DNA from: Escherichia coli
GTDB taxonomy: Bacteria > Pseudomonadota > Gammaproteobacteria > Enterobacterales > Enterobacteriaceae
NCBI GenBank assembly: GCA_025544715.1
Contig: GCA_025544715.1_4109.3
DNA length: 64,000 nt
Strand: one strand, 5' to 3'
Of this stretch, positions 2,291 through 16,458 are shown in pieces. The notes below the pieces were generated by a model, which searched no databases, was not told the origin of the DNA, and worked only from the letters and a program-made list of their open reading frames with translations. Position 1 is the first letter of the stretch, and each line of letters opens with the position of its first letter. A program made the position numbers and the translations under genes.

Positions 2291-2917
2291 TTATGTATTA
2301 GAATAAATAATGTCCATTGCTTTTTTATGTAAATCATCAATCGTACTGTTATTCTGTACAATTATATCAGGATTGTTTATTCCAATCCAAGCCCACTCAG
2401 ATTCGTGTACTGATTCTAGTTCAACTGGTTTAATATTAATATCCCCTTTATTATAAGAGGCAGCCAAACCATACCAATGTGGTAGAACACGTTGAACTTC
2501 AATAATAGTCCCATTATTTGATCTAATCATTTTTAATTCATTTGGAAAACGGCAATCAGTGATGATGATATTTCCATCTATGTCTTGCATTGATTTTTCT
2601 AAACTGAATACCCAAATATCATTATGAAAATACTTACGCAAAATATTAGTACCATAATTCTGCAATACCCATCGAGGGGATACATCATTACGACCTAACT
2701 TATCACACCAGTACTGATCCGGTTCTTCACGAATCTTACGACTTTCCTTAGTTGACCCCTCAAGCATTTCACGGTCCCATCCAAAGATAGCAGCAACTGA
2801 ATCTTTTAGATTGGTTGCGAATGACATTCGTGTGTAACCATTATTAATAAAAGATTCACCAAATGTATCTTTACCACTTCCAATAGTTCCGTTGATTGCA
2901 ATTATTTGTCTTCCCAT
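2291..2917 (-). CDS. Deoxynucleoside monophosphate kinase (T4 gp1-like)
   Basis: P-loop GTIGSGKDT; segments resembling T4 gp1 as recalled. Confidence 0.75.
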   Translation of the reverse strand: MGRQIIAINGTIGSGKDTFGESFINNGYTRMSFATNLKDSVAAIFGWDREMLEGSTKESRKIREEPDQYWCDKLGRNDVSPRWVLQNYGTNILRKYFHNDIWVFSLEKSMQDIDGNIIITDCRFPNELKMIRSNNGTIIEVQRVLPHWYGLAASYNKGDINIKPVELESVHESEWAWIGINNPDIIVQNNSTIDDLHKKAMDIIYSNT

Positions 2918-2935
2918 TATACTACTCCATGTATT

Positions 2936-3205
2936 TTATATAATTTCTATTAAATCCTTTCCTACTAAACTTTCAAGTAATCCAAGAATTGACTCATTAC
3001 CATAATATATAGAAACATAAGTAATAAAAAATGTTTCCCCATCATCATCACGATATATACTCGCCCATGCATTTATTCGATCTCTACCGATAACATCAAT
3101 GATTGAATCTTTGATAAATTTCCAGTACTTTTCAGTTGATTCATAATCAAGCGTTGGTCTACCACAACGATATCTGTTATACGTTACATTTATGTTATTA
3201 TTCAT
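2936..3205 (-). CDS. Hypothetical protein (89 aa)
   Basis: ORF in co-directional array; no motif recognised. Confidence 0.4.
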   Translation of the reverse strand: MNNNINVTYNRYRCGRPTLDYESTEKYWKFIKDSIIDVIGRDRINAWASIYRDDDGETFFITYVSIYYGNESILGLLESLVGKDLIEII

Positions 3206-3250
3206 GACAAGTTCCTTTAGATTAATATTATCATTATATCACATAATATG

Positions 3251-3275
3251 AAAAAAGACTCCATATAGGAGTCCT
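3251..3275 (-). terminator. Rho-independent terminator
   Basis: Hairpin GGACTCC-TATA-TGGAGTC then T6 on minus strand, after stop of 3282-4088. Confidence 0.6.
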
Positions 3276-3281
3276 TTTAAT

Positions 3282-4088
3282 TTAACCAATAATCATACCG
3301 AGTGGTTCAGCACCATCTTGATAACGTTTCAAACGCTCTTTAAGCTGTTCTTGAAGCTGTAAACCTTCATTGCGTAAGGTATCACCATCCATAGAAAACG
3401 TTCCCTGTGGTCCAGGAAGCGATGCAAATTTAGCACGGTTACGACCCAACATTATCATTGCTTCGGATAAAGCCCAATCACGCAACCAAGGATAACTTTG
3501 CTGCCTTTGGAACAACAATGGTTCAGGAATATTATGATACACGTGTAATAGTACTTCTTCAGTACCACGAATATCACGATCTATAATTAATTTTTTGGTC
3601 ATTGGGTTAAATTGAAATATAATATCACGACCAAACATACGACCTACCAGTTCTTGGAACTGAAAACTAAAATCATATGTAGTTAGATCATATCCACCAG
3701 CATTTCGTGCTGAAGTCAATAAGTAAGTGTTGGTGAATGCTAGAGAAAACGGGTCTACTGAGTTCCCACTACCAGAACTTAAGTAACCATTACCATAACG
3801 ATAAATCTTTTTAACAATTTCAACTTCAGTTGGTAGCATATATACAGATTGTGAATCATAAAATTTCATATTTAAAAATGCTTCTTCTTTAGAAGCAGAA
3901 CTCCACGCTCTGTAATTCGATACCGCATTATCAATTGCAATTTCTAATTGACCATCAGTAATTTCTACCTCAACGGCCCCAGCACCCAACATTTGAGTGA
4001 TAACATCTTTCAGTTTTTCACGATGGTCAAAGTTAGGAGCATCAGGGTTTCCACCCATATAATCGTAAGACATAAAAAAGCACCTCAT
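3282..4088 (-). CDS. Hypothetical protein (268 aa), possibly virion or tail-associated
   Basis: ORF followed by terminator hairpin at 3251-3275; position near sheath; no motif recognised. Confidence 0.45.
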   Translation of the reverse strand: MRCFFMSYDYMGGNPDAPNFDHREKLKDVITQMLGAGAVEVEITDGQLEIAIDNAVSNYRAWSSASKEEAFLNMKFYDSQSVYMLPTEVEIVKKIYRYGNGYLSSGSGNSVDPFSLAFTNTYLLTSARNAGGYDLTTYDFSFQFQELVGRMFGRDIIFQFNPMTKKLIIDRDIRGTEEVLLHVYHNIPEPLLFQRQQSYPWLRDWALSEAMIMLGRNRAKFASLPGPQGTFSMDGDTLRNEGLQLQEQLKERLKRYQDGAEPLGMIIG

Positions 4089-4123
4089 TAATGTTTATAT
4101 ACATTATTTAGAGGTGCTAATAG

Positions 4124-4342
4124 TTATTTTGAATTATACAAGCAGTACAGGTATACCAATGGAGTAAAATGTTCGGAATCTATTATATATATTAACTGAG
4201 TAACATATATTCCATATAGATCTCGTGATTTATCTCTGTACATTAACAATGATTTATTTAAGTAAGGATCAACCCAGTACTTAATATCATTGTACTTCAA
4301 CGTGTTGTTACGGTAACCTGATAGTTTTGAATTTTTATTCAA
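4124..4342 (-). CDS. Hypothetical protein (72 aa)
   Basis: ORF in array. Confidence 0.35.
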   Translation of the reverse strand: MNKNSKLSGYRNNTLKYNDIKYWVDPYLNKSLLMYRDKSRDLYGIYVTQLIYIIDSEHFTPLVYLYCLYNSK

Positions 4343-4712
4343 TTTTCTTACAATTACTCAGTAAGTGAATGATATCATCAGCAGTGAATGGTCCCAATAC
4401 CAGAACTTCTTCACCATTACCGAAAATGCTCAATGGTACTGATTGTTGACCAGCTAGATATTCAATTTGTTCCAGTTCGAAAATGTCATCAGCAGCATAA
4501 ACTACCTGCTCCATTTCATTATCTTTAATCCATGACTGCCAATGTTCTTTAAACTTCTTAGCTTCGTATTCTTGAACATAGTTAGGTGATTCAGGGTTAT
4601 ATTGATGTAACATAGTCATCCCAGCCATTACTAATTCTTTAGGGGATGGTGTAGAATCTTTCAGTACTACGATAGCTTGGATAGTTTTTACTTTAACGTC
4701 ATTAGCAGCCAT
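4335..4712 (-). CDS. Hypothetical protein; possible peptidyl-tRNA hydrolase PTH2-like fold
   Basis: C-terminal VLVLGPFTADDI resembles PTH2 VLGIGPxPADLI from memory; weak. Confidence 0.3.
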   Translation of the reverse strand: MAANDVKVKTIQAIVVLKDSTPSPKELVMAGMTMLHQYNPESPNYVQEYEAKKFKEHWQSWIKDNEMEQVVYAADDIFELEQIEYLAGQQSVPLSIFGNGEEVLVLGPFTADDIIHLLSNCKKIE

Positions 4713-4724
4713 TATATACCTCTA

Positions 4725-5042
4725 TTATAGAATGATTTTATTCTCAGGAACGAAAACTTTTGGAGTGTTTTCGATTGCTTTAATAGCATCAACATAAGCA
4801 TCAACTAATGCAGGGTTTGCATCACTAACACTAATAATGTTGGATTTATAAAAAATAACATTTTTCTCCATACTAACAAACTCTAGATAATCACGAAGAA
4901 TGATTTCACCATTTTCGTCAGTCCCTAGTTGTGCTGGGTAGTTAACTACAACAGCTTCAGCAGAATCGGTTTGAAGAACTGCTAGTACTGGGCCAATGTT
5001 ATTGATGTTTAGTAGTTTAACGGTCATAGTCATTTTTGTCAA
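4725..5042 (-). CDS. Hypothetical protein (105 aa)
   Basis: ORF in array. Confidence 0.4.
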   Translation of the reverse strand: MTKMTMTVKLLNINNIGPVLAVLQTDSAEAVVVNYPAQLGTDENGEIILRDYLEFVSMEKNVIFYKSNIISVSDANPALVDAYVDAIKAIENTPKVFVPENKIIL

Positions 5043-5052
5043 GTCCTTTTGT

Positions 5053-5529
5053 TTATTTTAGAATATATAAGTGTTTTTCTGCATTGACCAGACGGTGATC
5101 AATGATTTCTTTGATAACGTTCCAGTTACCGCCGCCCAAATCGGCTCCAATTTTCGGGAAATGTACATGAACATCTCGATCAACTTTACAAAAATAATTT
5201 AGATGTTTGAACACATCGTCGATTGCATCATAACTGACATATTTAGCACCGTCATTACCGTACATTTTTTGGGTAATACAGTTTGCAATAATCAAATTAT
5301 CGTTAATTGCTGAATATGCAATTTGTCCAATTCTAAGAAATCCCATTTCCTTTTCATATGCTTTATAATCATCATATGCCATTGGATAACGATTTCTTAG
5401 TTCTTTTGCAAAACCTGAACCCATTTTACCCTGTGCGTTACAACCATGAGCAATTATATGTATTGCTGTTTTATCATCTGTTACAGTACTGAATAATTCA
5501 AACAGATTACCTCGGTGTTCATGAATCAT
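5053..5529 (-). CDS. Macro-domain-like (ADP-ribose binding/processing) protein
   Basis: Gly-rich loops HGCNAQGKMGSGFA and FPKIGADLGGGNW resemble macro domain signature. Confidence 0.45.
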   Translation of the reverse strand: MIHEHRGNLFELFSTVTDDKTAIHIIAHGCNAQGKMGSGFAKELRNRYPMAYDDYKAYEKEMGFLRIGQIAYSAINDNLIIANCITQKMYGNDGAKYVSYDAIDDVFKHLNYFCKVDRDVHVHFPKIGADLGGGNWNVIKEIIDHRLVNAEKHLYILK

Positions 5530-5540
5530 TATATTCTCCG

Positions 5541-5568
5541 AAAAGAAAGGACTCTGTGGTCAGAGTCC
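5541..5568 (-). terminator. Rho-independent terminator
   Basis: Hairpin GGACTCTG-ACCA-CAGAGTCC then T-rich tract. Confidence 0.6.
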
Positions 5569-5578
5569 TTATTTTAAA

Positions 5579-5836
5579 TTATTCTTCTTCACCGAAACGG
5601 ATTTTCTTTAATTCTTTTCGATGCTTTCTAGCTATTGTACTTTTGTGAAGTCTATTACTGCGTTTTGTGTCTTTTGTAATGTACCATGAATCTTCTGGTG
5701 CATCATAATCACAAAATCCATCTTCCGTAATTGTTCCTAAAAATGCAGATTTTTTAGGAATATTAGTTTGAGCTTTAGCCTGAAATTGACCTTTTGCTAA
5801 TTGTTCACGAAAACTGAGCATAATAGTATCTCCCAA
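5579..5836 (-). CDS. Hypothetical protein (85 aa)
   Basis: ORF in array; terminator just downstream. Confidence 0.4.
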   Translation of the reverse strand: MGDTIMLSFREQLAKGQFQAKAQTNIPKKSAFLGTITEDGFCDYDAPEDSWYITKDTKRSNRLHKSTIARKHRKELKKIRFGEEE

Positions 5837-5867
5837 ATTGTTAAGAAGAACTTTTTGTTCTTCACAT

Positions 5868-6119
5868 TTATTTAGGGTTGCCAGAAACCTTCACATATTT
5901 GATAAATGCCAAAATATCATCTTTACTAAAAGATTTTACAATAAATTCGACAGCGGAATCATACTGTTCTTGTTTAGATAGATATTCTTTCATCTTGTTA
6001 ATTTTAATCTGGGCTTTTTCTTTAGCTATTGAAATATCAGGAATTTTGAACTCTACTCCCAACGTATCAGCTAGTTGTTTTGCACGAGATGATACTTTTT
6101 CAATATCCATTAGTTCCAA
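5868..6119 (-). CDS. Hypothetical protein (83 aa)
   Basis: ORF in array. Confidence 0.4.
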   Translation of the reverse strand: MELMDIEKVSSRAKQLADTLGVEFKIPDISIAKEKAQIKINKMKEYLSKQEQYDSAVEFIVKSFSKDDILAFIKYVKVSGNPK

Positions 6120-6358
6120 CGACCTTCTTTAAGACCTTCAATAAACCCAGTACAACCACCTGGTACATAAATGTCATTTACGAAAATTTGAGGAACTTGA
6201 CGAACTGGTTCACCACAAATTTCAGACAGTTTTGAACCATCGATACCTTCAGCAACAATATCTACAAACTCCATTTCAAATTTATTTTGTTCACATACAG
6301 CTTTTGCAGTGTCGCAAAATTTACAACCAGTCTTGCGACCATAAATTTTAACTTTCAT
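6110..6358 (-). CDS. nrdC: Glutaredoxin/thioredoxin (NrdC-like)
   Basis: CKFC active-site CxxC in ~80 aa thioredoxin-fold sized protein. Confidence 0.7.
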   Translation of the reverse strand: MKVKIYGRKTGCKFCDTAKAVCEQNKFEMEFVDIVAEGIDGSKLSEICGEPVRQVPQIFVNDIYVPGGCTGFIEGLKEGRWN

Positions 6359-6359
6359 G

Positions 6360-6761
6360 TTATTTCCTTCTATTTCTTTGAAAAGCTTTAACAGCTTTAA
6401 TAATACTGTTACACATTCGTTCAGTCAAATACTTTTGACATTCTCGTACATCAATGTACATGAACTTATCCAATTCTGGATGACTCTTACCATATCTATT
6501 AGTGTAAGTACTTTTACAAACTAATTCATCTGGTATTGGTTTGTCTTTGGCAGTATAAAAGAAAAGTACTAACCTTTTTCCCTTTCTATAGGATACATCA
6601 CCAAGAAACAGAAGATCATCTTCATCGATTTCGTATCCTGTCTCTTCGAAACATTCACGTACAGCAGCTTCTTTGAAAGTTTCATTACCCTCAGCTTTCC
6701 CTTTAGGTAAATCCCAATGATTCTGTCCGTGTTGTATGTCCGATAAGTATCTGACCATCAC
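6360..6761 (-). CDS. Nudix hydrolase
   Basis: Canonical Nudix box GKAEGNETFKEAAVRECFEETGY. Confidence 0.75.
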   Translation of the reverse strand: MMVRYLSDIQHGQNHWDLPKGKAEGNETFKEAAVRECFEETGYEIDEDDLLFLGDVSYRKGKRLVLFFYTAKDKPIPDELVCKSTYTNRYGKSHPELDKFMYIDVRECQKYLTERMCNSIIKAVKAFQRNRRK

Positions 6762-6868
6762 GATAAAATATTATACCACAACTATAACGCATATCTTATC
6801 TCTTTGTCATCAATCGATGTTCAGATACTAATAATTATATCAGTTATTGGTTTTTTGTCCCACTATTT

Positions 6869-7981
6869 TTAGAACATTTGTTTGATTGCTTCGTAACGAA
6901 GTTCACAAACAAAATCACGAATTTCTGACGTTTCAAGTTCACCATCTTTAACCATTTGCTGAATATCAGGTAATTCAACATCAGTATAACGATCATAAAC
7001 TTTAATAATTAGATCTTCAAGTTCTAAATCAATTTCTTTTCGCAAAATGAAGTATTCCAAAACTTTATAAAGGAATTCTTCACCTCCGTTATTTTTAATA
7101 TTCATATCCAATAAAATATTACCCATTTCAATTGGGGTCTTTTTACGGAATGTTTTGATATCATCACGGAAACGTTTGATATAATTACTAAATTTAACAT
7201 ACTTAACTGGAACTTTAATAGCACCGTTAAGTACTGAATCATTATTTACTTCTTCATTTTCTAGAAGAATAGACCACAGAAAATATGGTTTATATACATC
7301 AGTACAGTTATCTGAAATATAATCAATAAGGTCTAAATTCTTTTTGGTCAAAGATGTATTAAACACCTTTTCGTAATAACCAAATTTACTTAGCGTCTTA
7401 AGGAACTTTGAAGGCTTTTCTTCAGAAAATGCTTTTTCGAATTCCACAAAAACACGGTCAGGAACAAGATGATTTAGCTCACCACTATTGACCATTCCAA
7501 TAGCGAGTTCCTCAGTGCTTTCATGAATAGTAAAGTCTGAATAACGAGTAGCAAATCGAGCAAGACGTAACACGCGTAATGGATCTTCTTTAAAATGGTC
7601 AGAAACATGACGTAGTACCTTGTTCTTGATATCAGCTTTACCACCGTATGGATCGATGTGAATTTGTAGTACTGGATCATACGCAATTGCATTAATTGTA
7701 AGGTCACGGCGATACAAATCTTGTTCTAGTGTTACGCCTTTTGTATCCACTTCAAAGCCACCATATCCAGTACCAGTTTTACGCTCAGTACGGGCTAATG
7801 CGTGTTCATTACCTTCTGGACTTAGATATACTGGGAAATCCTTACCTACTTGCTTATAGCCAATACTTTGCAAGTACTTAAGATCAGATTCGGATGCACC
7901 AACAATGACATAATCTTTGTCTTTTGCACGAAGACCCATTAAACGGTCACGGACGTAACCGCCAACCAAATACTTTTTCAT
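6869..7981 (-). CDS. cca: tRNA nucleotidyltransferase (CCA-adding enzyme / poly(A) polymerase family)
   Basis: Head-domain motifs GGYVRDRLMG...DKDYV and RRDLTINA. Confidence 0.75.
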   Translation of the reverse strand: MKKYLVGGYVRDRLMGLRAKDKDYVIVGASESDLKYLQSIGYKQVGKDFPVYLSPEGNEHALARTERKTGTGYGGFEVDTKGVTLEQDLYRRDLTINAIAYDPVLQIHIDPYGGKADIKNKVLRHVSDHFKEDPLRVLRLARFATRYSDFTIHESTEELAIGMVNSGELNHLVPDRVFVEFEKAFSEEKPSKFLKTLSKFGYYEKVFNTSLTKKNLDLIDYISDNCTDVYKPYFLWSILLENEEVNNDSVLNGAIKVPVKYVKFSNYIKRFRDDIKTFRKKTPIEMGNILLDMNIKNNGGEEFLYKVLEYFILRKEIDLELEDLIIKVYDRYTDVELPDIQQMVKDGELETSEIRDFVCELRYEAIKQMF

Positions 7982-8116
7982 GTTATTCCCCCATCAACCA
8001 ATCACGTAGACGTTCCCAGAAGCCTTTTGGTTGGTATTCTGGGTATTCATATTCATCAGTGCCTTGCTCGGAAACACCCCAATCTTCTTCTAGCATAGCA
8101 ATCATAATGCCTCCAA

Positions 8117-8539
8117 TTAAATTAATCTGTCACGTAGACGGTCGTAATATTTTTTGTGTATAGCTAGTATACACTGATATGCAGAATAGTCAATACCAAA
8201 TGTATCATCAATGAACATGTACTGATCAAGTGTTTCGGGTCCATTATCATCAACTGGTAATGTCCCTTCTTTTTTTGATAGTGTGTGCCACATCAACTCA
8301 CTTTCAATATGGTGAGTTGCGTATGTCAATTCTATCTTACTTTTTCGTAGTAAAATTAACAATTCATCATTGTCGTCGAGTGCATTACGAAATTTAATAC
8401 GAACTGTACCCTGGAAATTATTAGTGTACATAACACGATGATGATTGTATGAAATCAAACCACGCCTTTCAGTACTGATTTCGTGTTCAGCAAAGTACTT
8501 TAACGTTTCATTAAATTTTGGAATTTTAGTAACGTCCAA
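8117..8539 (-). CDS. Hypothetical protein, tandem paralog A
   Basis: Shares YMFIDDTFGIDYSAYQ-like block with adjacent ORF 8526-8942. Confidence 0.5.
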   Translation of the reverse strand: MDVTKIPKFNETLKYFAEHEISTERRGLISYNHHRVMYTNNFQGTVRIKFRNALDDNDELLILLRKSKIELTYATHHIESELMWHTLSKKEGTLPVDDNGPETLDQYMFIDDTFGIDYSAYQCILAIHKKYYDRLRDRLI

Positions 8540-8942
8540 TCACATAATCCTCATAAAGTTCGTATACCCTCATTATACTCTGATATGTATCAAAGTCAAT
8601 ACCAAAGGTATCCTCAATGAACTGATATTGCAAAAACTCTTCCTCTGTGGCAGCAATAGGAAGAGTCCCGTTTCGTTGTTCTGGGGATTGAACATCCTCA
8701 ATATACATCAACACTATACCTTCATCCAGATTTATATCTATCATAAAAACATCTTCACTATAAAATATGTTATATGTACGGATGAAGAGATTTCCTGTTC
8801 TATCATAACTTGACACGTGTGTTTCATAATACATTTTATCTAAACTAAAGAACAAACCTGTACTATCTGGCTTTTTAGTATTTTTTAATTTAATTTCGAT
8901 AGCATCAATAATAGGTTTAATATCAAACTTTTTCATAGACAA
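8526..8942 (-). CDS. Hypothetical protein, tandem paralog B
   Basis: Shares YQFIEDTFGIDFDTYQ block with 8117-8539. Confidence 0.5.
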   Translation of the reverse strand: MSMKKFDIKPIIDAIEIKLKNTKKPDSTGLFFSLDKMYYETHVSSYDRTGNLFIRTYNIFYSEDVFMIDINLDEGIVLMYIEDVQSPEQRNGTLPIAATEEEFLQYQFIEDTFGIDFDTYQSIMRVYELYEDYVIGRY

Positions 8943-9118
8943 ATCACATACTTATTACTATGTGGGTCGTAACAATATGAATCATTTACCTTAATACCAG
9001 GCTTAAGTTCAATAGTTGTTCCTGTTTCAGTACTGGATTCCGCATCACAGTAAATCATCACACCAACTCCTGCGAGTAATGCTACGATACATACAATTAC
9101 ACCAATGGTATATTCCAT
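8933..9118 (-). CDS. Small membrane protein (61 aa)
   Basis: Hydrophobic N-terminal segment. Confidence 0.4.
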   Translation of the reverse strand: MEYTIGVIVCIVALLAGVGVMIYCDAESSTETGTTIELKPGIKVNDSYCYDPHSNKYVICL

Positions 9119-9131
9119 TTCAATTCCTCGG

Positions 9132-9527
9132 TTATAAAAAGTAATTATACATTTTATTGTACAATATAAAAAGATCTTTCACATTATCATAAGTAATATC
9201 AGATACATCATGAATTAATGATAACTGAAAAAATGAAGCTTCGTCTATTTCTGCTGGAATTATAACATCACCATCGTCTTCGTCCATTTTATTAGTGTAG
9301 TATTTTATGTGATCTACATTCAACTCAATAGAGAACGCAATGTTGGTTTTTGTATAATCTTCAATTAATCCAATATATTGAGATTTTTCATTAATAAAAA
9401 ATCCAATCCCAATACAACGGTTATCTGTATATGGATAGTACCATCTATTAATAACTAGGTGTTCAGGTAAGTCCATATCATGTGTTGATATTAGAGATTT
9501 TACAATTTCCATCCAGGAATAATTCAT
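9132..9527 (-). CDS. Hypothetical protein (131 aa)
   Basis: ORF in array. Confidence 0.45.
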   Translation of the reverse strand: MNYSWMEIVKSLISTHDMDLPEHLVINRWYYPYTDNRCIGIGFFINEKSQYIGLIEDYTKTNIAFSIELNVDHIKYYTNKMDEDDGDVIIPAEIDEASFFQLSLIHDVSDITYDNVKDLFILYNKMYNYFL

Positions 9528-9542
9528 AATTAAAACTCCATA

Positions 9543-9569
9543 AGAAAAGGGACAGAATTAATCTGTCCC
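9543..9569 (-). terminator. Rho-independent terminator after hpf
   Basis: Hairpin GGGACAGA-loop-TCTGTCCC then T-rich tract. Confidence 0.6.
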
Positions 9570-9580
9570 TTTAGTCTATA

Positions 9581-9913
9581 TTACTCTTCGTTTTCTGTCA
9601 AATCATCAAGAACTGGGTGTTCTGGATGGTTTCGGCGGTGTAATTTAATGCTTTTGTCTTTACTGAATACAGTTTCCATCTTATCAAAAGATTCAACAAT
9701 TGCTTTATACAAATCAGCATCATCAGCAGTGACTGATTTACTACCAGCAGTTAAAGTTACAGCATATTGAGTTTTATGCTCTTTCTTAACATGAACACCA
9801 ATGTCTAGTACTGAAGAAGTACGGTACTTATCCAGACTTTTTGCTTCATTGTAAATAGCATCTTGGATTGCTGGAGTGATATCAACGTTGCCTTGAATAT
9901 TTAGATTTAGCAT
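9581..9913 (-). CDS. hpf: Ribosome hibernation promoting factor (HPF/RaiA family)
   Basis: N-terminus MLNLNIQGNVDITPAIQDAI...KSLDKY parallels E. coli HPF MQLNITGNNVEITEALREFV...KLEQY from memory. Confidence 0.7.
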   Translation of the reverse strand: MLNLNIQGNVDITPAIQDAIYNEAKSLDKYRTSSVLDIGVHVKKEHKTQYAVTLTAGSKSVTADDADLYKAIVESFDKMETVFSKDKSIKLHRRNHPEHPVLDDLTENEE

Positions 9914-9929
9914 ATTTCACCTTCCTTTT

Positions 9930-10889
9930 TTAGAGTGAACTTAACAACAAATCTGCTCGGTTTGTAACTTGACGATACCATAAGGAATTCATGATTTCTT
10001 TTTTAAATTTCTTAGGGTTATCATTTTTTACGCTTTTCCAAAGCTTATTAAACGTAGCCAATTTATCGACACCCATTGTATAGGACATTTCAAAAAGAAT
10101 ACGTTGTTGTTCTTTGGTCAGATTTACTGCTTCTTTTTTCTGCATCAACAATAAAAAGTCATTATATGTTCTTTTCATATCTTGCATTAAAAGTTTATTG
10201 GCTTGAGCTTTGGTAATACCGTTTCTGTACTTAATCGCATCAGATTCTTTTCTACCCAAATAATGCCCATAACCTATTGTATAATTACCTTTCATGTCCT
10301 TGTAGGGATGAAATTTAGAATTGTGGAAAGGAACTCCGACTTTCCCACCAAGTAAACGGCGTTTGTTCTTGGACTGAAATTCAATTGAACCTTCAGCTTC
10401 TTTGATGTGATTGACAATTTCTGGATCATTATAATCAAACAGTACAGTCACATCTGGTAACAATACGTTCTTCAAATCCTCTTTTGTTGGGATAAAGATA
10501 CCCTGAGAAGTATGAAGAGTAGCATTTAAATTGATATTTTTCAACAAAATAACATACTCTTCAAGTTGTACATTTTTAGGTTTAAACTTTTTAGCAATAG
10601 AATAATAACTATCACCAGGTTGAACCGTATAATGCTTCTCGCCGCGTGGAACATCCTTTGATATTTCTACCTTTGGTAATTCCTGCTTTTGAATTTGCGT
10701 AACTTGTGGTTTTAAATTGTGTACCTGACTTTCGTCCGATGATGATACACGATCATTTTGAGAAAAACCATAAAATCCAATCGCAGCGACAAGTACTGTG
10801 CAAACTAGAACACCATAAGTAGTCTTAGTTTTCAGTGCTTTTTTCGCTTGTTTCAAAACGCCTCCTTTGTTGATTGTTAAGATGGGCAA
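9930..10889 (-). CDS. Membrane-anchored LysM plus T4-lysozyme-like (GH24-like) protein
   Basis: N-terminal TM segment, LysM-like HYTVQPGDSYYSIAKKF, C-terminal domain aligning to T4 lysozyme (YKDMKGNYTIGYGH); catalytic Glu position appears to be His. Confidence 0.65.
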   Translation of the reverse strand: MPILTINKGGVLKQAKKALKTKTTYGVLVCTVLVAAIGFYGFSQNDRVSSSDESQVHNLKPQVTQIQKQELPKVEISKDVPRGEKHYTVQPGDSYYSIAKKFKPKNVQLEEYVILLKNINLNATLHTSQGIFIPTKEDLKNVLLPDVTVLFDYNDPEIVNHIKEAEGSIEFQSKNKRRLLGGKVGVPFHNSKFHPYKDMKGNYTIGYGHYLGRKESDAIKYRNGITKAQANKLLMQDMKRTYNDFLLLMQKKEAVNLTKEQQRILFEMSYTMGVDKLATFNKLWKSVKNDNPKKFKKEIMNSLWYRQVTNRADLLLSSL

Positions 10890-11024
10890 TCACAAAGATG
10901 GCAAAGAGGCCATTTGCAAAAGCCTCATCGGACTTTCTACAGTACAAAAACGTTCTTTTCAAATGTTTAAGTAGTATAGCATATTTTTATTTTATTACAA
11001 GACATATTTACTGTAAAAACCACA

Positions 11025-11435
11025 TTAATCGTAGTAGGTTCTACCTACAGTTATGTGATATTTAAAGTACTTGGTTGGTAGTCCTAGTTCGTTTCTAATG
11101 TGTGTGATGAAATCATCTTCAAATTCAATGATAAAGAATGAACCTGGATTCTTTTTATCTTTTACTATCTCAATAGAAGGATTGAACTTTATCTTTACTT
11201 TCATTCCATCGTATTTTTTCCAGAACTCTTCATGTGGTGGTACTTCACCACGCACTATACTAACATGTGCTCCCCATTGAGGATCTTTAACATCAATATG
11301 TAAATCAGTTCTGATGAAGTACTGGTAGTATCTAACCAACTGTAATGGAAGTTGTAGTACTAACCAGAAGTCCTTCTTCTTTTTCATAGTGCCACGATCT
11401 GGATCATACACCAGAGTTCCTTCCATTTCAATCAT
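11025..11435 (-). CDS. 2H phosphoesterase superfamily protein (LigT/Acb1-like)
   Basis: Two H-x-[ST]-x motifs (HVSIV and HITVG) with spacing typical of 2H fold. Confidence 0.5.
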   Translation of the reverse strand: MIEMEGTLVYDPDRGTMKKKKDFWLVLQLPLQLVRYYQYFIRTDLHIDVKDPQWGAHVSIVRGEVPPHEEFWKKYDGMKVKIKFNPSIEIVKDKKNPGSFFIIEFEDDFITHIRNELGLPTKYFKYHITVGRTYYD

Positions 11436-11442
11436 ATGTTAC

Positions 11443-11646
11443 CTATAAAATTACATATATGTTTTTATTTTCAATACGAACATATGTTTCCAAAACATCT
11501 TTCGGAATTTTATTACTTGTTTTGAACCATGTAGTATTCTCTACTAAAACAAAAGTTTCACCTTCAGTTTCACCAAATGTACTTAGTGCATAAATGAAGT
11601 AATTGGGTGATGCACTACAATATATATCAGCATTAATTTCAATCAT
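11443..11646 (-). CDS. Hypothetical protein (67 aa)
   Basis: ORF in array. Confidence 0.35.
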   Translation of the reverse strand: MIEINADIYCSASPNYFIYALSTFGETEGETFVLVENTTWFKTSNKIPKDVLETYVRIENKNIYVIL

Positions 11647-11649
11647 ATG

Positions 11650-11781
11650 TTACACCACAATAAAGCTTAATACAACGAGTGTAATAAACACACCCACGAT
11701 GGCAGTCATTTCTGGGTTTGCATCATATGTATAGCGTATACATTTTAGAAAATCTTTACCAAATTTCTTTAGTCCATTCAT
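11650..11781 (-). CDS. Small tail-anchored membrane peptide (43 aa), not in ORF track
   Basis: Own translation MNGLKKFGKDFLKCIRYTYDANPEMTAIVGVFITLVVLSFIVV; AAGGA RBS upstream; abuts next gene start. Confidence 0.3.
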   Translation of the reverse strand: MNGLKKFGKDFLKCIRYTYDANPEMTAIVGVFITLVVLSFIVV

Positions 11782-11792
11782 ATATTTTCCTT

Positions 11793-12149
11793 TTATTTCT
11801 TGTGTAAAGGTTCATCACTTTCATAATAAATTGTATCATTATTTCGCTCTATAGTAAAGCTCTTTTGACACAACTCTTCAGCTAAACCCTTTGCATAGTT
11901 TAATACATCTCGGTTGAGATATACTTCTTCTTTTGGAAAGCGTGGGTACTGAATAATACGAGCACACATCCCACTTTCAAGACCACCCGTGTAGATGTAT
12001 TCACACGGAATCAATTGTACACAAAAACCAAGATTGAATGCAAACTTTCTTGTGTACTCTCTTGCTGTTTGAATATCACCAGCAATATGGATATTCCAGT
12101 ACTGTGTCTCCACTGTACCTTTATCGATGTATTTCATACTCATCTCCAA
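11793..12149 (-). CDS. Hypothetical protein (118 aa)
   Basis: ORF in array. Confidence 0.45.
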   Translation of the reverse strand: MEMSMKYIDKGTVETQYWNIHIAGDIQTAREYTRKFAFNLGFCVQLIPCEYIYTGGLESGMCARIIQYPRFPKEEVYLNRDVLNYAKGLAEELCQKSFTIERNNDTIYYESDEPLHKK

Positions 12150-12166
12150 TTATAGCACTAAAAATC

Positions 12167-12556
12167 TCACTTTCCCAACTCTTCTATGATTCTTTTTATT
12201 GAATCATGATTTTCCAGACATAAAGTACTGTAATTTCTGCCAGTTTTTTCATTGAGGTCGTCGATTTCAATCATAAGATATCCATATGTAATATCTTGAA
12301 CCCTACTTCGTTTTACCCTTGAGTACAGCTTGATTGGTACTGATACACGAGTATTCAAAAACAATTCAGATAAATCATAACGATACACCAGGTATTCATT
12401 CTTGTAACGCTTACGACTGTAAGATTCTAAACACTGCGGATAACGTCTATCAAAAATACTGGTCCTTAGCTGAAGATTCATCGGATCTAACTTATGTGAG
12501 TAATATTTTTTAATTATTTTCTCAAAACGCTTAATGTGACGTTTCTTCCATCTCAT
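12167..12556 (-). CDS. Hypothetical basic protein (129 aa)
   Basis: ORF in array. Confidence 0.45.
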   Translation of the reverse strand: MRWKKRHIKRFEKIIKKYYSHKLDPMNLQLRTSIFDRRYPQCLESYSRKRYKNEYLVYRYDLSELFLNTRVSVPIKLYSRVKRSRVQDITYGYLMIEIDDLNEKTGRNYSTLCLENHDSIKRIIEELGK

Positions 12557-16017: not shown

Positions 16018-16458
16018 TTATTGTAAAACTTTAAGTTTGTAAAGTGTTCCTTCAACAAAACTCATAATATCTTCTAATGTGTTTACACTGCCGTAATCAC
16101 CCGATTCTTCAAGCATATCATGAATTGCTCTGCATTGCTCAACATATTCTTCAAGAATTGGTACACAATCTTCAATTGGTGTAAAACGATAACTATTACC
16201 AGTCCCAACTTGTAAAGCACCACGATTATTCATGATACCTTCAACAAATGCGTCTACATATTCTGGTAATTCTTTATATAGTTCATCTAATTGTAAATGC
16301 TTTGTATAAAAATGACATTGTAAGTGCCAGTTATGTGCAGCAGAACTTAAAAACAAACTATTTTCAATAAAAGTTAATAGTACTTCATCATATGAATTAT
16401 CTTCTTCAGTACTTCCGATAAAGTCCATTACGTGTCGTAAATCATTAATATCTTCCAT
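16018..16458 (-). CDS. Hypothetical protein (146 aa); possibly ferritin/Dps-like helical
   Basis: ORF in array; His/Glu-rich helical pattern, weak. Confidence 0.4.
   Translation of the reverse strand: MEDINDLRHVMDFIGSTEEDNSYDEVLLTFIENSLFLSSAAHNWHLQCHFYTKHLQLDELYKELPEYVDAFVEGIMNNRGALQVGTGNSYRFTPIEDCVPILEEYVEQCRAIHDMLEESGDYGSVNTLEDIMSFVEGTLYKLKVLQ

Follow-up and report, generated by a model that had tools for sequence, protein, structure and literature searches.

Does a jumbo coliphage carry a ribosome hibernation factor of its own, and what would such a protein do to the ribosomes of the host? The question is raised by an open reading frame (ORF) at positions 9581-9913 of a 64,000-nucleotide stretch of DNA filed under Escherichia coli (assembly GCA_025544715.1, contig GCA_025544715.1_4109.3), the whole of which is called the window here. 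The window was found to be 95-98% identical to the approximately 350-kb Asteriusvirus jumbo coliphages SP27, slurp01, PBECO4 and 121Q (PBECO4/121Q-like). An original prediction, made from the sequence alone, had described the ORF as a phage-encoded hibernation factor, and the phage origin is borne out by this match. It is firmly supported that 9581-9913 is a real gene encoding a protein of the HPF/RaiA family, as the profile match, the fold and the existing RefSeq annotation agree. The architecture is of the RaiA (pY/YfiA) type and not that of short or long HPF, that is, one S30AE domain followed by a flexible tail of approximately 23 residues, without a dimerisation domain. The features of the gene are as follows.

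9581..9913, minus strand: coding sequence (CDS) of the HPF/RaiA-family protein, 110 amino acids, ATG start; orthologue of PBECO4 gp039 and 121Q gp533, identical to Sharanji WNN14706.1
9656..9910, minus strand: modelled fold, residues 2-86, topology E-H-E-E-E-H
9584..9652, minus strand: RaiA-type C-terminal tail, residues 88-110; basic S-I-K-L-H-R-R-N (+3), then acidic DDLTENEE (-6)

Family membership, fold and prior record

The Pfam profile PF02482 (Ribosomal_S30AE) matched the protein with E=3.3e-10 and 41 bits, above the gathering cut-off of 23.7, and residues 5-87 covered positions 2-84 of the 88 in the profile. The original prediction had named this search as a check and had placed the HPF/RaiA match in the N-terminal half of the protein. 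The family stood, whereas the extent did not: the complete domain makes up approximately 80% of the 110 residues, and only residues 88-110 are extra to it. PHROG 8990, 'sigma 54 modulation protein/S30EA', was matched at 6e-6. In a sequence search of the PDB the best match was HPF of T. thermophilus (5e-7), and all matches up to E=0.19 were HPF, pY or RaiA chains. The second Pfam match, dodecin (PF07311; E=0.0012, 19.5 bits), was below its cut-off of 22.5 and was rejected; the 50 listed fold matches did not include a dodecin either.

An AlphaFold2 model built from 13 homologues had a predicted local distance difference test (pLDDT) score of 75 overall and of 74-88 per 10-residue block across residues 1-80. 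Strands were formed by residues 2-8, 36-44, 50-56 and 59-65, and helices by residues 14-30 and 68-86. When the model was compared to the PDB with Foldseek, the best 38 matches were all HPF, RaiA, pY or RafH, with template modelling (TM) scores of 0.5-0.8, and HPF from Listeria, Vibrio and E. coli was among the best of them. The model superposed on E. coli HPF (YhbH; b3203) of the 100S ribosome (6h4n_x) at a root-mean-square deviation of 1.7 Å. The same E. coli protein shares the domain with the phage protein at 28% identity over 89 residues (BLASTP, 31.6 bits). Ranks 39 and 41, next after the hibernation factors, were double-stranded RNA (dsRNA)-binding proteins.

The gene has a place in the public record. 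The 110-residue protein is 100% identical in 11 deposited phage genomes, and the PBECO4 and 121Q orthologues (NC_027364 and NC_025447), which are 83-84% identical to it, are named 'HPF/RaiA family ribosome-associated protein' in RefSeq. The RefSeq CDS of PBECO4 gp039 (83% identical) fell at identical coordinates when the PBECO4 genome was mapped on the window. A 2025 description of phage Sharanji lists exactly this protein, together with the CCA enzyme encoded nearby, as translation regulators. The literature search on this phage clade returned annotation-level mentions and no experimental work. Virion association was considered and dropped, the protein being unmentioned in the paper on the phAPEC6 virion proteome. 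Both the identity of the gene and the general idea are thus already known, and the finding is correct and not new. What is new here is the recognition of a RaiA-type tail, the finding that canonical basic residues are missing, and evidence that the gene has long been inherited vertically among jumbo phages.

The RaiA-type tail and the ancestry of the gene

The tail, residues 88-110, was predicted to be disordered, with pLDDT mostly below 50. It carries a net charge of +3 over residues 88-97 and of -6 over residues 98-110; the last 10 residues carry -5 in E. coli RaiA and +3 in HPF. Among 13 homologues, down to 61% identity, R94, D104, E109 and E110 were invariant and R93 nearly so, and the conserved acidic C-terminal end reads DLTExEE. 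In a wider alignment (A5), which takes in Erwinia phage Hallingskeid, Salmonella phage Munch and four metagenomic relatives, R94 and a terminal acidic residue were kept in all 11 of the phage-type sequences (25-49% identical to the window protein). The DLTE motif was retained in Hallingskeid and Munch, and the pattern of K/R-R followed by an acidic end was found again in these two and in other distant relatives.

The closest counterpart in architecture is E. coli RaiA (pY, YfiA; b2597), which has 113 residues compared to 110 and likewise consists of one S30AE domain and a flexible tail of approximately 23 residues. The two share the predicted fold and an acidic C-terminus, and their alignment is gap-free from D67, in the DxY motif, to beyond an Arg-Arg pair that lies equally far from that motif in both, so that R93/R94 fall on RaiA R95/R96. 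Sequence identity is nevertheless 25% (BLASTP, 27.3 bits). In a cryo-electron microscopy (cryo-EM) study of K. quasipneumoniae YfiA, Arg95 and Arg96 made strong contacts with 16S rRNA and uS7, and the tail headed for the binding site of RMF, its last residues always being disordered (bioRxiv 10.1101/2025.10.07.680626). Other contacts of the family come from basic patches on helices alpha1 and alpha2, namely K27, R30, K84 and R87 in S. aureus HPF and K26, Q/K29, K80 and R83 in E. coli, to which the cryo-EM study adds K87 and K91. At contact positions the phage protein keeps K29, K78, K85, K87 (invariant) and K90. Long HPF, with a C-terminal dimerisation domain after a linker (approximately 180-200 residues in all), was rejected as a class for a protein of 110 residues with no second Pfam domain.

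An exhaustive profile search of 1.8 billion representative proteins returned 63 hits at E<=0.001. Since 25 of 43 mid-length representatives ended in an acidic stretch, in a search whose query profile contained the tail, the tail would be family-wide architecture and not an invention of the phage. The best matches beyond the family itself were small proteins with a similar tail, and the top one among them is encoded by the Salmonella/Klebsiella jumbo phages Munch, 7t3, SE_PL and fENko-Kae01. The homologues of these four phages and of Hallingskeid are of the same length class and have the same type of tail, whereas protein identity to them is 31-46% (tblastn). The second-best entry in the search, P0015 (1605 residues, E=2.6e-34), was discarded as a relative: it is built of 29 near-identical repeats of 55 residues, and their weak matches had been summed. 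This protein comes from the representative library and lies outside the window, and it probably reflects an error of assembly or gene prediction.

A shared gene neighbourhood was checked for Munch and Hallingskeid, where the order is lysozyme, (one ORF), HPF, small ORFs, CCA nucleotidyltransferase and NUDIX. Across seven Asteriusvirus genomes the pairwise ratio of nonsynonymous to synonymous substitution rates (dN/dS) was 0.12-0.27, with dS up to approximately 1.8, which indicates that the gene is under purifying selection.

The S30AE proteins of rV5-like coliphages appear to have a different history. HPF genes of these phages were described by Mizuno et al. 2019 (PMC6375957), as was one from the jumbo Cronobacter phage GAP32, which has a 359-kb genome and an S30AE protein of 111 residues. 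A tblastn search with E. coli HPF at 1e-3 retrieved 130 phage records, mostly rV5-like at 42-44% identity. The Asteriusvirus clade was not retrieved at 1e-3 with either E. coli HPF or RaiA (11 records), and GAP32 was not among the matches of the tblastn searches. The rV5-like proteins (Vequintavirinae) resemble the Asteriusvirus protein in length, approximately 105 residues, in their presence in large coliphages and in their annotation as HPF or sigma-54 modulation factor. In contrast to their 42-44% identity to host HPF, that of the Asteriusvirus protein is 28%, and it groups with the jumbo-phage proteins. The higher identity suggests that HPF of the rV5 group is a more recent capture. The Asteriusvirus gene is thus an old resident of the approximately 350-kb enterobacterial jumbo-phage lineage and not a recent capture from E. 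coli.

The proposed role at the host ribosome and its alternatives

The solved relatives all bind in the decoding cleft over the A and P sites, so binding at this place is the most economical reading of the fold. By homology, the S30AE domain of the phage protein would occupy vacant host ribosomes in the head-body cleft of the 30S subunit, covering the A and P sites, where it would exclude mRNA, tRNA and initiation factors. The tail would extend toward the RMF pocket and bar RMF from it. Idle host ribosomes would then be kept as protected, quickly reusable 70S monomers, instead of being stored as 100S dimers with RMF and HPF or degraded. The phage would benefit if ribosomes were preserved while the host enters stress or dormancy in the course of a long jumbo-phage infection, and the protein might counter RMF-driven hibernation under stress or in dormancy induced by defence systems; with one such system, DRT2, RMF goes up in cells under infection (PMC11100668). 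We consider that this proposal, in which vacant host ribosomes are parked as 70S monomers and RMF is kept off them, has about an even chance of being right. The original prediction that a viral HPF could silence host ribosomes or protect them belongs to the same reasoning from homology; silencing would correspond to the dimerising role considered below. Mizuno et al. 2019 (PMC6375957) had already proposed that a viral HPF may act in competition with the cellular one and so keep ribosomes from dimerising. A jumbo-phage protein directed at host ribosomes has a precedent in PhiKZ014, an early ribosome-targeting protein of phage PhiKZ (Gerovac et al., cited in PMC11895373); unlike the protein studied here it is not related to the family, and according to the Sharanji paper a homologue of it is absent from this phage group.

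Several observations weigh against the monomer-parking proposal. The HPF/YfiA equivalog model TIGR00741, whose match otherwise lends support to the family assignment, scored 36.3 bits, just below its cut-off of 40.9. The NCBIfam models for HPF (PRK10470, 23.2 bits vs a cut-off of 125) and RaiA (PRK10324, 19.3 bits vs 158) both scored far below their cut-offs, and for this reason the protein cannot be assigned to RaiA or to HPF by equivalog score. Unlike RaiA, the protein lacks K26 and R83, which are replaced by S26 and T81, respectively, so that two of the four basic residues reported to be conserved in all HPF/YfiA homologues are absent. Also unlike RaiA, it has a deletion of three residues in the beta2-beta3 loop. 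T53 and S58 stand in place of the His55/Glu60 pair with which HPF contacts uS9. Such differences from the canonical family call for genuine caution as to whether the predicted ribosome binding takes place. In no ribosome structure has the end of the RaiA tail been resolved, so any role assigned to the acidic end would be tentative, for RaiA too. When rV5 HPF was expressed in E. coli, it was undetectable in purified 70S and 100S ribosomes and the level of 100S particles was unchanged (PMC6375957). The rV5 protein is the sole phage HPF tested experimentally so far, and it is from a different clade than the Asteriusvirus protein. No data on expression timing and no proteomic data were found for the HPF-like gene.

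The same departures could mean that the function has shifted, the fold being kept while stable binding in the decoding cleft is lost and another RNA or protein becomes the target, for example phage transcripts, or RMF or another hibernation or defence factor for which the protein would act as a decoy. The lost canonical contacts (S26, T81, T53/S58), the absence of rV5 HPF from ribosomes and the overall acidity of the protein (isoelectric point 5.5) would all be consistent with such a shift. So would the dsRNA-binding proteins at fold ranks 39 and 41, and an invariant, family-specific block, VHVKKEHKTQ, found together with the deletion in the beta2-beta3 loop. However, the structurally characterised proteins among the top 38 PDB matches are all ribosome-bound factors, the basic residues K78, K85, K87, R93 and R94 of alpha2 and the tail are kept at RaiA/HPF contact positions, and E. 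coli HPF and RaiA are mildly acidic as well. We regard a shifted function as unlikely.

Short HPF forms 100S dimers together with RMF. A phage protein of that kind would bind the matching site of the 30S subunit and, with RMF of the host, drive the formation of dimers, shutting down or storing the host ribosomes. The core is marginally nearer to E. coli HPF than to RaiA (28% vs 25% identity, 31.6 vs 27.3 bits), the NCBIfam HPF model scored 23.2 bits compared to 19.3 for that of RaiA, and HPF chains are among the best fold matches. The short HPF of E. coli, however, is tail-less and ends at residue 95 with the basic sequence KLKQH (+3), whereas the phage protein extends for a further 23 residues or so with a conserved, acidic-ended, RaiA-like tail. 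The comparable tail of RaiA is directed at the site of RMF, and the phage tail argues against a role with RMF in 100S formation. With this tail and its low score under the HPF model, the protein was not accepted into the short class (approximately 95 residues). R83 is moreover missing, and in S. aureus HPF the double mutant K84A/R87A, where R87 corresponds to R83, lost ribosome dimerisation. A phage that needs translation over a long infection would also gain little from dimerised ribosomes. We consider the dimerising role improbable.

That the gene is a dispensable passenger without selected function is very improbable: four closely related records of Salmonella-infecting Asteriusvirus (SD-15_S21, SD-2_S15, SD-1_S14 and SD-6_S16) each carry a different internal deletion in it (region 9742-9850 of the window), but dN/dS is low and the neighbourhood is kept even in phages where identity of the protein has fallen to 30-46%. 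The deletions could stem from assembly and need not be natural knockouts, because these records carry many clean gaps of 107-701 bp in this part of the genome (six of them within 12 kb in SD-15_S21, window 2770-12213) and the lysozyme gene is broken into 2-3 CDS in three of the four. The series was for this reason not used as evidence of dispensability.

Transcription unit, neighbouring genes and biological meaning

The HPF-like gene is the second of two genes in a likely transcription unit, which consists of a promoter, a LysM-lysozyme gene, the HPF-like gene and a terminator.

10973..11000, minus strand: predicted sigma-70-like promoter, TTGTAA-16 nt-TATACT, with TG before the -10 hexamer (extended -10), from a consensus scan
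9930..10856, minus strand: membrane-anchored LysM-lysozyme, upstream gene of the unit (Pfam Phage_lysozyme and LysM; RefSeq CDS coordinates)
9918..9925, minus strand: Shine-Dalgarno-like GGAAGGTG, 5 nt before the ATG of the HPF-like gene; a ribosome-binding site is annotated at the matching place in phage UE-S1
9546..9572, minus strand: intrinsic terminator hairpin immediately 3' of the HPF-like stop codon, GGGACAG-loop-CTGTCCC, then TTTTCTTAT

The lysozyme stop codon is separated from the HPF-like start by 16 nt. The hairpin at 9546-9572 had a predicted energy of -18 kcal/mol and a z-score of -3.75 compared to shuffles, and the four SD Salmonella phages carry it unchanged. UE-S1 has an annotated terminator at the corresponding site and Munch has one 3' of the orthologue; all told, a terminator followed the gene in two of three records examined. 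The terminator named in the original prediction was thus found where it had been placed. All promoter-like sites that lie upstream with no terminator in between precede the lysozyme gene. The TTGTAA/TATACT site is the best documented among them, is kept in five of six Asteriusvirus genomes together with a conserved leader of approximately 100 nt, and is the likely promoter of the lysozyme-HPF unit by its consensus match. A promoter of the sigma-70 type would fit early or middle expression. The leader between promoter and lysozyme start (10857-10972, minus strand; GTAGAAAGTCCGATGAGGCTTTTGCAAATGGCCTC...) was strongly conserved across Asteriusvirus, the divergent EJP2 included, and contains a GAGGC/GCCTC hairpin without an Rfam match. 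An Rfam scan of 8500-11500 gave zero matches, and no tRNA genes were found in the window.

The neighbouring genes, all on the minus strand, are as follows.

4335..4712, minus strand: PTH2-fold protein, 125 amino acids, 'hypothetical' in public records
5053-5529, minus strand: macro-domain protein
6110-6358, minus strand: glutaredoxin/thioredoxin-like protein
6360-6761, minus strand: NUDIX hydrolase
6869..7981, minus strand: CCA tRNA nucleotidyltransferase, 1.6 kb downstream of the HPF-like gene (Pfam PolyA_pol head 67.6 bits, RNA-binding domain 33.6 bits)
8117-8539 and 8526-8942, minus strand: two overlapping ORFs of 138-140 amino acids between the HPF-like gene and the CCA enzyme
11025-11435, minus strand: weak 2H-phosphoesterase match (25.6 bits, cut-off 27)

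Two of these genes had been proposed, with the HPF-like gene, as modulators of the translation apparatus. The CCA-adding enzyme was recovered with both of its domains, and it is syntenic with the HPF gene in the distant jumbo phages Munch and Hallingskeid. For the PTH2-like ORF at 4335-4712 no significant Pfam match of its own was obtained, and a looser limit gave PTH2 at 12.5 bits (cut-off 23; E=0.18). PF01981 (PTH2) was matched at E<=1 by nine of 10 close homologues, the best at 5.6e-7. In a Foldseek search with an AlphaFold2 model (pLDDT 71), the top 12 PDB matches, at E 9e-6 to 2e-4, consisted entirely of archaeal Pth2 and human Bit1. A PTH2 fold is thus supported. The Asp of the Pth2 RDAG motif is the proposed catalytic residue, and it aligns with an invariant Asn, N99, in the FGNGE motif of this family; given Asn for Asp, the hydrolase activity may be altered or lost. 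With the CCA enzyme and the PTH2 fold confirmed, it is reasonable to say that several translation-apparatus genes are clustered in this phage.

In the distant jumbo phages the CCA enzyme and the NUDIX hydrolase, with an 'ADP-ribose binding protein' in Munch, occur in conserved order, and an RNA ligase lies nearby in Hallingskeid. The set of neighbours is reminiscent of enzymes acting on ADP-ribose and on the by-products of RNA repair, and gives the region the appearance of an island for RNA and translation maintenance; this is offered as context, not proof. The ORFs at 8117-8539 and 8526-8942 are tandem paralogues, as both belong to PHROG 20693, and the ORF at 9132-9527 (minus strand) shares the weaker PHROG 17453 with one of them. 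The PBECO4 'starvation-inducible transcriptional regulator', which corresponds to the window ORF at 16018-16458 (minus strand), was identified by Pfam as DUF5856/ferritin-like (Dps-like) and has no bearing on hibernation.

The proposal also has a bolder form. The protein would be an anti-hibernation and possibly anti-defence factor that occupies the HPF/RaiA site and whose tail blocks RMF, and its gene would make up, with the CCA, PTH2-fold, macro, NUDIX and 2H-like neighbours, a 'translation maintenance' island kept throughout this lineage of jumbo phages. We regard this extension as doubtful. If it were true, the host would be prevented from locking its ribosomes in 100S particles when infection or a dormancy defence raises guanosine tetraphosphate (ppGpp) and RMF, and the phage might even reopen hibernating ribosomes in stationary-phase E. 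coli of the gut. The RaiA-type tail and the two lost canonical basic residues yield concrete mutants and predictions. Ribosome hibernation is central to bacterial dormancy and antibiotic tolerance, and its control by a phage would explain how large, slowly replicating phages are supplied with translation in starving or defence-arrested cells, and would provide a tool for manipulating hibernation.

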